From positions 1 through 64,000 of the IMG/VR virus record IMGVR_UViG_3300032893_000018: a stretch of DNA of 64,000 nt; one strand, written 5' to 3'. The position numbers were made by a program, and so were the translations under genes. The notes under the pieces are model-generated. The model was not told the DNA's origin. It saw only the letters and a list, made by a program, of their open reading frames with translations, and did no database searches. The stretch comes from a virus. Positions 2,792 to 64,000 of this stretch are shown here, one piece after another; the first letter of the stretch is position 1, and each line of letters opens with the position of its first letter.

Positions 2792-3904
2792 ATGGCGATC
2801 TCCTGCGTCGGCACGAGCACGGCGTCGGGCACGGGGTCCGTCTCGCCGACCATCCTGAACGACCCGGGCGTCGCGGGCGCGTTCCTTCTCGTGGTGTGCT
2901 CGTGCGACGGCGGCGACACGTGGTCGGCGCCCGACAACACGTGGACGCAGATCCGCACCGACTTCGTCTCGCCGAACGGAAACCAGGTCGCGCTGTTCTA
3001 CAAGCGCTCGGCGGTCGGCTCGGGCACGTACACCTTCAACATCACCGGCAACCCGCGGGCGATGGGCGCGGTGCTCGCGGCCTACACGGGCGTGACGGCG
3101 CTCGCGTCGATCGTGCCGGTGCAGGAGCAGGTCATGAACGCGGACAGCACGGCGCAGACATCGCCGTACGTGCTGACCACCGCTCAGCTCACGACGGCGA
3201 CGAACCTCGTGCAGCTCGTCGTCGCTTTCGCGATCTCGCCGAACAGCGGCGTCGGCACCGACTCGTTCGCCGTGCCGCAGGGCTACACGCGACAGGTCCA
3301 GTTCACGGACGCGAGCGGCAAGAATCCCCTATGCATCTGCGACGCTCCTTTCTCGCCCCGCGGCGTGACGCCGCCCGCCACGGCGATCGACACGCGCGCG
3401 GGCGGGCCGACAGCGGGATACGCCGCGTACACGCTCGCGCTCGTCGCGGCGGGTCCCGTGTTCTCCGCGCAGCCGCAGAACGTGGTCGTGCAGGCGGGCG
3501 CGTCGACGACGTTCTCGGTGTCGGCGACGGGGAGCGGCGGGCTCTCGTACCAGTGGTACCTGAACGGCTCCGCGATCTCGGGCGCGACGTCGTCGACGTA
3601 CACGACGCCCGCGCTCGGGTTGTGGAACAGTGGCGACGACTACTACTGCGCCGTCACCGACTCCGACTCGACGATCGCGACCGACCCGGCGACGGTGACC
3701 GTGCTCGGGACACAGACGACCGTCGCGAAGCGGTCGCCGTGGGCGCGCGAGAATCTGTACGTGGCGTCGGGGTTCGACGGCGCATCGCCGACGGACGTGT
3801 ACGCGGTGCGCGCGACGAACAGCCTCGCGGACGTGATCGCGCAGGGGTCGCAGTCGCAGGACAACCAGCGGTCACTCTACTTCGGCTCGGGCACGATGCA
3901 GTAA
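2792..3904 (+). CDS. Ig-like domain virion/tail protein
   Basis: Ig-domain motif QPQNVVVQAGASTTFSVSATG..LSYQWYLNGSAISGATSSTY...YYCAVT. Confidence 0.75.
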   Translation: MAISCVGTSTASGTGSVSPTILNDPGVAGAFLLVVCSCDGGDTWSAPDNTWTQIRTDFVSPNGNQVALFYKRSAVGSGTYTFNITGNPRAMGAVLAAYTGVTALASIVPVQEQVMNADSTAQTSPYVLTTAQLTTATNLVQLVVAFAISPNSGVGTDSFAVPQGYTRQVQFTDASGKNPLCICDAPFSPRGVTPPATAIDTRAGGPTAGYAAYTLALVAAGPVFSAQPQNVVVQAGASTTFSVSATGSGGLSYQWYLNGSAISGATSSTYTTPALGLWNSGDDYYCAVTDSDSTIATDPATVTVLGTQTTVAKRSPWARENLYVASGFDGASPTDVYAVRATNSLADVIAQGSQSQDNQRSLYFGSGTMQ

Positions 3905-3923
3905 GCGCGGCATCCTGGATCCC

Positions 3924-4244
3924 ATGCAGTTCATCAAGTGCCCGGAGTGCGACCAAGGGTCGCAGGACCCGGTGAAGTTCCCGATCTTCCACGCGCCGAC
4001 GTGCTCGAAGTTCGACGGCGCGAAGGTGCCGGTGCGACCGCTCCCGCTGTTCGCGAACGACGAGGAGCTCGAGACGTTCGGCGCCGGGTTCCGGTCCGCG
4101 CTCGCCGGGCACTGCGCGTTCCGAGTGAAGTGCAGCGAGGAGCAGCTCGCGGAGTTCCGCGCGTTCGCCGCCTCGCACCGGAGCAACCTGGAGCTCGCGC
4201 GCGCCGTGCTCGACGTGCTACGCGCCGAGGGTTCCCAGGTCTAG
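3924..4244 (+). CDS. Hypothetical protein with CxxC
   Basis: ATG ORF, CPEC motif, convergent with the GT gene. Confidence 0.45.
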   Translation: MQFIKCPECDQGSQDPVKFPIFHAPTCSKFDGAKVPVRPLPLFANDEELETFGAGFRSALAGHCAFRVKCSEEQLAEFRAFAASHRSNLELARAVLDVLRAEGSQV

Positions 4245-5632
4245 ATCATCCGCTGGCCGGGCAGTCGCCCGTCGTCGTCCTTGAGCGACACGAGCGCGGC
4301 GTGCACGTACGGCACCTTCCCGCGCTCGGTGAGGAGCCGCGCGGCCATGAATCGCTCCGTGGTGTTGTCGATGTACCGCGCGAGGCGCTGCTCGGTGTAG
4401 TAGCGGAACGAGTCCTCGACCCAGTAGGAGCAGTGCGTCGGGTCCTGATGCGCACCGGGCCCGCACCCGTCGGGCGTCGACGACAGGAGCCAGCCGCCGG
4501 GCGCGAGGCAGCGGTGGAGCTCGCTCATCGTGTGGAGCTTGTTCGGCAGGTGCTCGAGGAAGTCGACGGCGCGGAAGGCGCCGATCGACGAGTCGGGAAA
4601 CGGCCACGGCGTGCCATGCACGCCGAGCTGTCCGAGAGGGATCCCGGCATCGCGCCACGCCTTGTCGGCGAGCTCCAGGGTTTCGGGTGGCGCCCTGGTA
4701 CACGCGATCCATGCAGGCCACGGTAGCGCTGCGTCGACGGGGATCCACGGCGCGCCGGGCGTCCCGTGCGCGCCGCCGAGGTCGAGGCACGGCAGGCCGC
4801 GGAGCGACATCTCGCGCTCGACGAGGGCCTGGAGCCGTCGCGCCTGCATCTCGGCGCTCGCCGCCTGGATGTTCGGGATCTGCTTCGCCCACGTGTTCGC
4901 GCCGGGCGCGACCCGGTAGAAGTACAGCACCTCGGGGATCTTCCGCATGCGCCCGGCGAGGTACGTGCGCTGCAGCAGATCGAGGTCGTCGCACACCTTC
5001 AGCGACGCGTCATGCCCGCCGATGCGCTCGTAGAACGAGCGGCGCCACGCGCGGAGGTGGTTCGGCGCGTAGCTGATGAGCGAGACCGAGAGCGCGGACG
5101 GCTCGAACGTGATCGGGTACACGAGCCGCTCGGCGCCGACGTGCGCGCGGAGGTTCTCCGGCACGTCGCAGTCGGCGAAGCTCCAGTTGCACGTGAGCCA
5201 CGACGCCTTCACCGCGGGGTCGTGGTACGTGACGCGGAGCCCCGGCGGGTCGGAGAAGTCCGCGCAGTCGGAGTAGACGAAGTCCACGCCGGGGTCGACG
5301 AACGCCTCCGCGACGCGCGCGAGCGCATGCGGGTGCAGCATGTCGTCGTGGTCGAGCTCGAGCACGACGTCGCCCCCGGCGAGGCCGAACGCCACGCCCT
5401 TCACGGCGCCGACCGAGCCGCCCGTGCGCAGCATGGAGCGGTGCACGATCACGCGGTCGTCGACGTCCGCCAGGCCGAGGTTTCGATCCGACGGCGCCGG
5501 GGGGCCGTCGGGGTCGATGTTGTTCAGGAACACGCGCCATTCGAAGTCCGCGTGCGATTGCGCGCGGAGCGAGTCCCACGCCTGCTGCAGCCACCGCAGA
5601 TCGTGCGTGGGCGTGATGACGCTGATCTTCAC
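4241..5632 (-). CDS. GT2 glycosyltransferase fused to class I SAM methyltransferase
   Basis: KISVITPTH, ELDHDD (DxD), RIGGHD..LKVCDDLDL; C-terminal LDLGGA, DFLEHL, LAPGGWL, HQDPTH. Confidence 0.85.
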   Translation of the reverse strand: MKISVITPTHDLRWLQQAWDSLRAQSHADFEWRVFLNNIDPDGPPAPSDRNLGLADVDDRVIVHRSMLRTGGSVGAVKGVAFGLAGGDVVLELDHDDMLHPHALARVAEAFVDPGVDFVYSDCADFSDPPGLRVTYHDPAVKASWLTCNWSFADCDVPENLRAHVGAERLVYPITFEPSALSVSLISYAPNHLRAWRRSFYERIGGHDASLKVCDDLDLLQRTYLAGRMRKIPEVLYFYRVAPGANTWAKQIPNIQAASAEMQARRLQALVEREMSLRGLPCLDLGGAHGTPGAPWIPVDAALPWPAWIACTRAPPETLELADKAWRDAGIPLGQLGVHGTPWPFPDSSIGAFRAVDFLEHLPNKLHTMSELHRCLAPGGWLLSSTPDGCGPGAHQDPTHCSYWVEDSFRYYTEQRLARYIDNTTERFMAARLLTERGKVPYVHAALVSLKDDDGRLPGQRMI

Positions 5633-21600: not shown

Positions 21601-21646
21601 AAAAAGGTTTGCACGGTGGGCCATGTTGGCCTATCTATCGGGTGTC
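21601..21646 (+). promoter_or_regulatory. Sigma70-like promoter with palindromic operator
   Basis: TTGCAC-N17-TATCTA containing TGGGCCATGTTGGCCTA; near-identical to 34224-34268. Confidence 0.65.
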
Positions 21647-34223: not shown

Positions 34224-34268
34224 AAAAGGTTGCAATGATGGGCCATCATGGCCTATCCTTTGGGTGTC
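34224..34268 (+). promoter_or_regulatory. Promoter/operator of the Cas12-like gene
   Basis: TTGCAA-N18-TATCCT containing the palindrome TGGGCCATCATGGCCTA (34239-34255). Confidence 0.65.
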
Positions 34269-61965: not shown

Positions 61966-62217
61966 CCGCGGCGGCATGATCGGATCGATGGCCGATTGCT
62001 TGGTTTGCGCTGAGGCGAAACCCCTCAAGATTTGTGAGAAGTGCGGGTTGCAGATGGCCATCAGCATCTTGCAAAACGCGGTGCTGGACGATGGGCAGCA
62101 GCAGGAAGTGCTGAAGACCGCCGTCAAACGCGCGCTCGTACTGCTGGAAGCATTGGGTTGAGTGCGGCATGACCTCCGAACGTGGGCCATCTTGACCCAC
62201 CCAACAGGAGGCACGAC

Positions 62218-62892
62218 ATGACCAGGCAACCCAAGAAGGAATCGATCGACCGGGCGAAGGCGCTCATCACGGGCGGCGGGGAGGAGCGGGTGTCGCTCAA
62301 GGCGCCCGACCTGCGGGTGGCGACCTTCCACATCGTCGGCACCGCGCCGTACGTTCAGAACAAGTTTTCGAACAAGGCGCGCGAGATGATGAAGCAGACC
62401 CAGATGATGGGGTCGCAGGCGAAGACCCGGAAGGTGCGCGAGCCGAAGGACTTCGACGCCGTGTACCGGGGCGCGATGCACCTCACCGAGGACGGTAAGT
62501 ACGGGATCCCGGCGAACGCCTTCAGGTCGGCCTTGATCTCGGTGTGCCGCCTCATCGGGTTCAAGATGGTGCTCGCGAAGCTGTCGGTGTTCGTGCTGCC
62601 CGACGGGTTCGACGCGGACGATGGCACGCCGCTCGTGTTCATCAACGGCGAGCCGGTGGCGCACGAGACGGTCGGCAGGAACGACAACGGCAGCGCCGAC
62701 ATCCGCGTGCGCCCGATGTGGCGAGAGTGGTCGGCCGACGTGCGCGTGCGGTTCGATGCGGACCAGTTCTCGCACAAGGACGTCGCGAACCTGCTGATGC
62801 GCGTCGGCATGCAGGCGGGCGTCGGCGAGGGGCGGCCCGACTCGAAGAACAGCGGCGGCATCGGCTGGGGCACGTTCGAGTTGGAGGGCTGA
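62218..62892 (+). CDS. Stand-alone Cas7/RAMP-like RRM protein (224 aa)
   Basis: TFHIVGTAPYVQN (beta1-G-P), YGIPANAFRSAL, RPMWREW...VRFD, Gly-rich loop GVGEGRP..GGIGWGTFEL; AGGAGG RBS. Confidence 0.75.
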   Translation: MTRQPKKESIDRAKALITGGGEERVSLKAPDLRVATFHIVGTAPYVQNKFSNKAREMMKQTQMMGSQAKTRKVREPKDFDAVYRGAMHLTEDGKYGIPANAFRSALISVCRLIGFKMVLAKLSVFVLPDGFDADDGTPLVFINGEPVAHETVGRNDNGSADIRVRPMWREWSADVRVRFDADQFSHKDVANLLMRVGMQAGVGEGRPDSKNSGGIGWGTFELEG

Positions 62893-62895
62893 GCG

Positions 62896-63339
62896 ATGGC
62901 CGAGATTACCGACAAGGTCATCGACAGGCTCGAGGCGCTGAGGAAGAAGGGAGGTGGCGTCCTCACGCCCGAGGCCGTGCTCGCCGACGCGAAGGCGAAG
63001 GCGAGCCCGCTCCACGCGCACTTCGACTGGGACGACACGGTAGCGGCGCACCGCTACCGGCTGATCCAGGCGGGGCAGCTCATCGTGCGCGTGAAGGTCA
63101 CCATCGAGCCGCGGACGCAGCGCGACGTGCAGGTCGACGTGCAGATGTACGAGCAGACCGGGCAGGAGCAGGGCGAACGCGTGTACCGGCACATCGCCGA
63201 CATCGCGACGAACGAGGAGTACTACGCCGAGCTGCTCGACTCGGCGAAGAAGGAGCTGCAGGCATTCCAAAGGAGGTATCAATCGCTCAAGGAGCTGCGG
63301 GCGCTCTTCGAGCAGATCGAGAAGTTGTTCGCGGCCTGA
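62896..63339 (+). CDS. Helical partner protein of the RAMP-like gene (147 aa)
   Basis: LTPEAVLADA..SPLHAHFDWDDTVAAHRYRLIQAGQLI; starts 3 bp after the RAMP stop. Confidence 0.75.
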   Translation: MAEITDKVIDRLEALRKKGGGVLTPEAVLADAKAKASPLHAHFDWDDTVAAHRYRLIQAGQLIVRVKVTIEPRTQRDVQVDVQMYEQTGQEQGERVYRHIADIATNEEYYAELLDSAKKELQAFQRRYQSLKELRALFEQIEKLFAA

Positions 63340-63342
63340 CCA

Positions 63343-63670
63343 CGCAGGCGCCGCATCTCTTCGCTCCGCGCCACAACACGGTCCTCCTCACCGCTCCGCA
63401 ACGCAGGCTACGCCACGCCCCGCTTCACGCAACCCCGCCGCACCAGCCATCGCAGGCTACGCACCGTTCCGCCGCGCTACGCCCCGCCCGTACTCCGCCG
63501 CCCACTTCATCGCAGGCTCCGCTCCGCTCCGCCACGCGTGTCAGCACAACGCACCGCCACGCTCATCAGCTCACCGCAGGCCTCGCTCGTCTCTCCGGTC
63601 CTGGCACGGCTCATCTGTGCTTCGCAGGCATCGCCACGCACCGTCACGCATCGCATCGGCCGGCAACGCT
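63343..63670 (+). ncRNA. Pentamer-periodic array of six CGCAGGC-headed units; putative guide RNA array
   Basis: Heads at 63343, 63402, 63451, 63511, 63575, 63623. Each unit is CGCA plus n x (triplet + NN), with triplets mostly CGC/CAC/CTC. Confidence 0.75.
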
Positions 63671-63686
63671 GGTTATCATCTGAACG

Positions 63687-64000
63687 GTGAAGGTCGACCT
63701 CCGGGACGCCGGGCGCGCGCTCGCGCAGCTCGGCATCGGCATGAACCGAGCCGCTGAGCGCGGGCTCCTCTCCGCGGCGATCCGCGGCGTGCAGATCATC
63801 CAAAGCCAGATCATCCCGTCGAAGGTCCCGCAGCCGGTCGACCGCGGGCTCTACCGCGCCGGGTGGAAGTGGGGGCCGGTGCCCGGCGGCGGCGAGCTGT
63901 GGAACTCGGAGCCGCACGCGCCGCTGATCGAGTTCGGCGTGCGCGCCGGGAACATCAAGGTCGGGCGCAAGATGATCGACGCGCTCACCGAGTGGGCGAT
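63687..64000 (+). CDS. HK97 gp10-like neck/tail-completion protein (3' end outside window)
   Basis: PVDRGLYRAGW...NSEPHAPLIEFG motif. Confidence 0.65.
   Translation, partial: MKVDLRDAGRALAQLGIGMNRAAERGLLSAAIRGVQIIQSQIIPSKVPQPVDRGLYRAGWKWGPVPGGGELWNSEPHAPLIEFGVRAGNIKVGRKMIDALTEWA

Follow-up and report, generated by a model that had tools for sequence, protein, structure and literature searches.

What does a phage encode in a short tract of tandem pentamers that lies in an intergenic gap of its structural region? This question is raised by a 347-nt gap, flanked by an open reading frame (ORF) at 62896-63339 and another starting at 63687, in the 64,000-nt stretch of viral DNA analysed here (the window; positions 1 to 64,000 of IMG/VR record IMGVR_UViG_3300032893_000018). 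The initial annotation had described the tract at 63343-63670 as a fixed triplet plus a free dinucleotide (NN), arranged in units of 4+5n nt, and this description was right, with entropies of 0.0-1.6 bits at pentamer positions 1-3 and 1.8-1.95 bits at positions 4-5. We conclude, with a probability of about 0.85, that the tract encodes the guide RNAs (vrRNAs) of a phage-borne VIPR system consisting of vipr, a vap-like partner gene and six head-to-tail guides. This reading is supported here by the RAMP fold of the Vipr protein, its homology to the Vipr of phage SUSP1, a conserved gene pair, a conserved array grammar and hypervariable NN.

VIPR, described in 2026, is a CRISPR-related, RNA-guided DNA silencer whose parts are Vipr (a single RAMP protein of ~20 kDa), the accessory gene vap (its product predicted to act on DNA) and vrRNAs of 9-16 pentamers; the GGY triplet of each pentamer is buried in the protein, while the NN reads double-stranded DNA with one base, usually the codon wobble, skipped per dinucleotide (bioRxiv 10.64898/2026.04.26.720920). 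This minimal, PAM-free DNA-binding system, for which self-targeting was reported to be absent, has been proposed as an ancestor of CRISPR effectors (bioRxiv 10.64898/2026.04.26.720920). The one-base-skip code was established experimentally in Escherichia phage SUSP1 (bioRxiv 10.64898/2026.04.26.720920 and 10.64898/2026.04.26.720927), and cryo-EM revealed one protomer per repeat and named the residues holding G1, G2 and Y3 (bioRxiv 10.64898/2026.04.26.720927). Furthermore, satellites and phages have been found to borrow or decoy one another's Vipr via solo vrRNAs. A gapped reading of the pentamers in which the wobble base is skipped, as had been proposed for this tract from its letters, is thus the published VIPR code and not a new idea.

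Layout and grammar of the array

Six CGCAGGC marks, all on the + strand, are located at 63343, 63402, 63451, 63511, 63575 and 63623, and their spacings (59, 49, 60, 64 and 48 nt) are those listed previously, including two that are off by one; these belong to units 3 and 5, each of which is off register by one base. Over the entire window, the heptamer occurs about as often as expected (33 copies versus 31.9). The other 27 sites, distributed over 2 x 64 kb, correspond to ~0.07 per 330 nt on one strand, and therefore six phased copies are far beyond chance.

Guide unit 1 (63343-63401, +) begins 4 nt past the vap stop and consists of the CGCA junction, GGC-NN and ten xxC-NN pentamers, giving 11 NN. 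It is followed by unit 2 (63402-63450, +) with 9 NN, and by unit 3 (63451-63510, +), in which 7 NN and 4 NN are separated by a one-base slip; if one inserted G is allowed, C returns to position 3 in every pentamer of this unit. Unit 4 (63511-63574, +; 12 NN) is the cleanest, and unit 5 (63575-63622, +) is degenerate, with the register lost after five pentamers. The last one, unit 6 (63623-63670, +; 8-9 NN), has no closing junction and runs toward the start of the neck gene at 63687. Units 1-4 contain 11, 9, 11 and 12 pentamers, within the published range of 9-16 repeats per vrRNA.

The pentamer parsing given earlier for units 1, 2 and 4 proved to be exact: C occupies position 3 in all 32 in-register pentamers, and 16 of them start with CGC. 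The composition of these pentamers is C1 75%, G1 16% (mostly the first pentamer of a unit), G2 59% and C3 100%, and the entropies at the five positions are 1.14, 1.57, 0.00, 1.95 and 1.81 bits. The fixed triplet is therefore CGC, except that the first pentamer of a guide has GGC. The array thus exhibits the conserved trinucleotide and hypervariable NN in tandem pentamers by which VIPR arrays are recognised; its triplet departs from the canonical GGY in that position 1 is mostly C.

The five-base rhythm was also evident in autocorrelation and period-5 statistics. The autocorrelation of the tract is 0.48, 0.44, 0.40 and 0.39 at lags 5, 10, 15 and 20, and 0.2-0.35 at other lags. Its period-5 index (0.169; genome mean 0.005, sd 0.028) and its C-skew (-0.43) are both the strongest across the 93,897-bp phage record. 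The array RNA, strongly C-rich and G-poor, folds more weakly than all 100 of 100 dinucleotide-preserving shuffles (z +4.2); such avoidance of structure is expected for a guide that is held single-stranded.

No second tract of this kind and no solo guides were detected elsewhere in the 94-kb genome, and Rfam, searched at a permissive threshold with the tract and five relatives, returned no relevant match. CRISPR direct repeats (~23-50 nt) with spacers were not found at the tract, where the 7-nt junction is the sole recurring element, and no cas1 or cas2 lies near the array. Neither a sigma-70-like promoter nor an intrinsic terminator was predicted at the locus. A 379-codon open frame at 62544-63683 (+), which spans vipr, vap and the entire array, was considered and rejected as a gene, being an artefact of a sequence that is poor in G and high in GC.

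The upstream gene pair and its relatives

The gene vipr (62218-62892, +; PHROG 4652) encodes a 224-aa Cas7-like RAMP protein when read from its likely ATG at 62218 behind AGGAGG, whereas the mechanically called ORF starts with GTG at 62182 and has 236 aa. With 17 homologues as input, AlphaFold (AF2) modelled the protein at a pLDDT of 76. With this model, the top Foldseek matches were all Cas7-family proteins (type VII Cas7, Csm3, Cmr4 and Cas7-11; E ~1e-4, prob 1.0), and a wide VIA-align search placed Cas7/Csm3/Cmr4 among the top 13 (Z 6.5-7.9). When all PDB sequences were searched with a profile built from the clade, the single match was 36pp_D "SUSP1 Vipr protein" (E 6.9e-5), aligned over both the G-loop and the Arg of the thumb. 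Throughout the clade, the G-rich loop at the C terminus does not vary. Judged from its sequence and predicted structure, the upstream gene is a Vipr homologue, namely a small stand-alone RAMP with an RRM core, a thumb and a C-terminal glycine-rich loop.

The vap-like accessory gene (62896-63339, +; 147 aa; PHROG 15946) follows directly, and its homologue adjoins vipr in 62 of the 71 related loci described below. In its AF2 model (pLDDT 80), the N-terminal half comprises three helices and a beta-wing, and the C-terminal helix is long. Structural matches were weak (E ~1), mostly to winged-helix DNA binders and none significant, and the protein has neither a Pfam match nor a PDB sequence match. 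Both PHROGs are annotated as function unknown, and the gene after the array is a neck or tail-completion gene.

To place the array, the 236-aa upstream ORF was compared with IMG/VR, yielding 20 relatives with 47-63% identity. The full set of related loci, found through the Vipr protein, consists of 71 loci: 21 from IMG/VR and 50 from prokaryote genomes, the latter from many phyla and mostly metagenome-assembled. The Vipr family as a whole comprises 3,583 proteins at E<=1e-30, and those nearest to the window Vipr are 65-68% identical. Of the 21 IMG/VR loci, 20 have a period-5 array beside vipr, as do ~46 of the 50 prokaryote-genome loci. In a period-5 scan, the five-base rhythm just downstream of vipr was stronger in nearly all IMG/VR relatives than in the window.

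Built of GGC-NN pentamers, the arrays of the relatives are interrupted at intervals of 44-64 nt by a step of four bases (xGCA|GGC, often CGCAGGC itself). Across 752 of their pentamers, G1 reaches 93%, G2 89% and C3 78%, and the entropies of N4 and N5 are 1.87 and 1.95 bits; every in-register unit measures 4+5n nt, in most cases 44-64. GCA|GGC is preceded by G in 64% and by C in 26% of 319 junctions, and the NN before the junction starts with A in 61% of these and in four of the five cases in the window. The window array and its relatives are thus alike in unit lengths, in the CGCA|GGC junction and in an A-rich last NN. The + strand of the window is the homologous strand, and position 3 is a pyrimidine there, in agreement with the published Y3 pocket.

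The initial annotation had named invariance of the NN among relatives as evidence against its model. What was found is hypervariability: loci whose Vipr proteins are 98-100% identical have 0-1 guides in common. A separate observation concerns two contigs (L145 and L146) of one Clostridia-labelled MAG, which encode identical Vipr and carry three arrays each with no guide in common.

Several other routes to counterparts of the array led nowhere. C-skewed regions in relatives turned out to be unrelated coding sequence. An IMG/VR scan for three spaced CGCAGGC marks listed 120 matches, all of them coding repeats without period 5, and one for a junction with three phased CGC gave at least 120 matches, which among the matches listed were all due to chance.

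The locus was next compared with known systems. With the type II VIPR of SUSP1 (PDB 36pp; bioRxiv 10.64898/2026.04.26.720927) it shares a homologous Vipr (E 6.9e-5), the pentamer code and an adjacent accessory gene. In the profile alignment, R138 of SUSP1 Vipr corresponds to R177, D177, W178 and R179 to E216, G217 and R218, and C173 to residue 212. The two differ in that SUSP1 guides are ~100 nt long with a 3' pseudoknot tail, whereas no tail was seen in the window guides; in that W178 of SUSP1 stacks on G2, while the aligned residue is Gly in the window clade; and in that function in SUSP1 needs G1, while position 1 in the window is C. The "staggered" vrRNA arrays (bioRxiv 10.64898/2026.04.26.720920) likewise combine a lone phage RAMP and an accessory gene with three fixed and two variable bases and 9-12 pentamers per guide. 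As in the window, where guides abut without a tail and the four-base step xGCA|GGC fits the published "one-nucleotide overlap", they appear to be joined head to tail, a likeness judged by the legend of fig. S18. The window differs from them in its triplet, CGC instead of GGY. The methods of the same preprint list the non-canonical forms YNNNG, NNNGG and NNNNG (bioRxiv 10.64898/2026.04.26.720920), and in the register used there YNNNG can accommodate the window triplet only with its additional N fixed as C; in the YNNGG register, CGC-NN reads C-NN-CG.

Also similar are the non-canonical VIPR arrays of a later preprint (bioRxiv 10.64898/2026.10.21.760802), in which a Vipr-like fold stands by period-5 arrays with a non-GGY triplet, as it does here. 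Section 2.3 and fig. S10 of this source name GAC, CAC, WGT and TGH; CGC is not named in its consulted text. The variants described there define whole clusters, whereas the window variant is a single lineage among GGC relatives. The Cas7 backbone of Class 1 CRISPR is also a RAMP filament on a guide RNA, with a thumb that periodically breaks the duplex. It reads 5 of every 6 bases, whereas VIPR reads non-contiguously, 2 of every 5, and the window locus lacks the CRISPR repeats, spacers and cas1/cas2 of Class 1 systems.

By analogy with SUSP1, the array would be transcribed with or after vipr-vap, and cleavage of the transcript at each xGCA|GGC junction would release guides of ~50-64 nt. Each pentamer would then be bound by one Vipr protomer, with the fixed triplet buried and the two N bases presented. 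The 9-12 NN pairs of a guide may base-pair with a DNA strand with every third base, usually the codon wobble, skipped, and the resulting Vipr filament would be predicted to silence transcription of a rival mobile element.

Reading of the guides, target search and rival explanations

The reverse-complement NN strings written out earlier for units 1, 2 and 4 were correct, and it had been noticed that they resemble codon positions 1-2 of proteins. Codon statistics were taken from 25 genes of the phage itself, and the 51 NN pairs of the window were scored against them. The results bore out this resemblance: the antisense of codon positions 1-2 fitted best, scoring +17.7 bits relative to background, a value reached by none of 5,000 background samples. 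Sense positions 1-2 scored +5.0 bits, the other four phases -22 to -62 bits, and a plain composition model +7.6 bits. Such a codon-like NN composition implies a target with period 3. The sense orientation gave unit 6 its higher score, and unit 2 scored about equally both ways, in keeping with the published finding that either strand can be targeted. Overall, the NN composition suggests protein genes as the targets of most guides, with pairing to their coding strand.

None of the six guides gave a natural target at a gap of 0, 1, 2 or 3, a result that argues against working guides. In the phage's own genome, the best matches at gaps 0-2 equalled those of shuffled guides, and at gap 3 the matches fell on the array alone; this lack of self-targets is in line with the published VIPR systems. 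In ~1.4 Mb of retrieved loci, no match rose above shuffles at any gap. The major head protein has only three relatives in IMG/VR (51-56% identity), all without an array and without a guide match, and a TerL tblastn search for sister phages against 50,697 phage records gave no match. Exact one-base-skip patterns of guide 4 (10 NN), guide 1 (10 NN) and guide 2 (9 NN) had zero matches each in IMG/VR.

In JGI metagenomes, the exact one-base-skip pattern of guide 1 (10 NN) had five matches (L313-L317), all in unrelated cellular genes. The eleventh NN is left unmatched in all of them, and three or four of the five do not have the codon phase that the model predicts. The actual gene at L315 and L317 occupies another frame and strand, and L313 reads as a MerR/HspR-like gene in another frame; the match of L316 is near the end of a gene, and L314 lies on a contig of 36% G+C. 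These five matches look like chance, about five being expected by a rough, unverified estimate of the collection size.

The excess of matches at one gap size that had been predicted thus did not appear at gaps 0, 1, 2 or 3, in a search of low power: the collection scans were exact-match only, and the published criterion of >=80% of NN was applied to local sequence at most. As to the one-base-skip, wobble-skipping reading itself, it agrees with the SUSP1 VIPR code, and the part that concerns this locus, a one-base skip in a CGC-type clade, is an inference.

A clade-level test, in which 154 guides of relatives were compared with 0.44 Mb of VIPR loci, detected no overall shift. Its best one-base-skip match was a single case, between a guide at L159:3191 and the vipr gene at L156:1215-1243, with 18 of 20 bases matching in codon phase; the matched stretch spells a conserved Vipr motif, the helix before the G-loop, and the vipr of L159 itself matches at 14 of 20. 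With a joint chance probability estimated at ~0.01, this case looks, from the sequences, like targeting of one VIPR by another.

Two other explanations of the window tract have to be weighed against a working guide array. One is that the array derives from a GGC-NN ancestor and is decaying, or is read by a different rule (contiguously or with another skip). The triplet is indeed looser than in relatives (C1 75% and G2 59% versus G1 93% and G2 89%), units 3 and 5 are off register, unit 5 is degenerate, and the one-base-skip search yielded no target. Partial decay is possible in view of the loose positions 1-2, the two off-register units and the degenerate unit 5. However, C3 is kept in 32 of 32 pentamers and all six junctions are intact; the RNA avoids structure; the NN composition implies a period-3 target; and vipr and vap are intact, with a Vipr branch length (0.5) that is ordinary for the clade. 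A different skip fares no better, because gaps 0, 2 and 3 are likewise without matches. We consider decay or another reading rule unlikely as the main explanation.

Less probable still, in our judgement, is an element that does not act as a guide at all, whether a pentanucleotide microsatellite formed by slippage, a rut site (C-rich, for the loading of Rho) or the binding track of a TRAP-like ring protein between head and neck genes. The RNA is C-rich, G-poor and unstructured, as a rut site would be, and the binding site of TRAP formally resembles a triplet-plus-spacer grammar; a ring protein or rut site was in fact our first idea, which was abandoned given the arrays of the relatives and the VIPR papers. 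Slippage had already been doubted in the initial annotation, and rightly so, since slippage products would not combine positions 4-5 of near-maximal entropy with an invariant position 3. Moreover, the same grammar stands beside a RAMP gene in nearly all of the 71 loci, from many phyla, and the arrays of the relatives are G-rich, so that C-richness is not the conserved property. The homology of the adjacent protein to SUSP1 Vipr is a further point against an element without guide function.

The CGC scaffold and the setting of the locus

Having assigned the tract to a VIPR array, we examined how its triplet departs from that of its relatives. Among the 71 loci, the window is the sole case of a CGC-type array. 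In a quick maximum-likelihood tree, the window Vipr is nested among GGC-type rows on a branch of 0.5, ordinary for the clade.

One other locus of the set has a different triplet. Locus L187, on contig BPJP01000018.1 of a Gemmatales MAG, contains at 3230-5110 a very long array (1.9 kb) of GTC-NN pentamers with four-base GTCA|GTC junctions, which directly follows a Vipr homologue of 43% identity. The same tree places L187 elsewhere. Support for the placement of the window Vipr and L187 is modest (SH-aLRT 86, branch not starred). From these sequences, the switches to CGC in the window and to GTC in L187 look independent and derived.

In SUSP1, G1 is held by H17 and D177 (bioRxiv 10.64898/2026.04.26.720927), and a change of G1 in GGY abolished silencing (bioRxiv 10.64898/2026.04.26.720920); a CGC scaffold would therefore need altered recognition. 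The residues at the SUSP1 G1 contacts (E216 and, tentatively, N60) are the same in the window Vipr and in GGC-type relatives. Compared with 64 relatives, the window Vipr is changed at only four well-placed positions of >=85% conservation, namely W106K, A121V, T130V and V212A. Val212, in the G-loop, is invariant in all other relatives (n=64), and residues 106 and 121 are tentatively assigned, by position alone, to a site at or in RNA-binding helix-1. It is conceivable, though we hold it to be rather doubtful, that the window lineage switched its scaffold base from G1 to C1 within the GGC clade, with GGC kept at the first pentamers, and that W106K, A121V and V212A carry this switch.

If this is true, the CGC array, together with the GTC switch in L187, would provide natural and mutually orthogonal VIPR scaffolds, and rival phages would be unable to borrow each other's guides. 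A changed scaffold that excludes foreign guides would bear on the borrowing and decoying of Vipr by solo vrRNAs. As mutation of G1 kills function in SUSP1, natural switches direct attention to the few residues that determine which scaffold is read, and such pairs of Vipr and vrRNA might be orthogonal. Within one tight Vipr clade (71 loci), the "invariant" triplet can change (GGC to CGC, GGC to GTC), with junction, unit length and NN variability being kept. The locus adds nothing to the principle of VIPR; its distinctive point is a CGC variant with GGC first pentamers, nested in a GGC clade.

In the phage, the VIPR locus is located downstream of the terminase, portal, MuF and major head protein genes, between the major head protein/HNH genes and the neck gene. 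Its presence in a 93.9-kb virus record fits the finding that VIPR is mostly encoded by viruses or proviruses. Just upstream of vipr, and followed by AGGAGG and the ATG at 62218, is an operator-like 17-bp near-palindrome (62183-62199, +). This near-palindrome (TGGGCCAT...) occurs three times, at 21617-21633, 34239-34255 and 62183-62199, with at most three mismatches between copies and 0.1 occurrences expected; the copy at 34239-34255 directly precedes a gene at ~34305. The sequence of these three sites suggests that they share an operator and that the VIPR module has a promoter of its own within the structural region.
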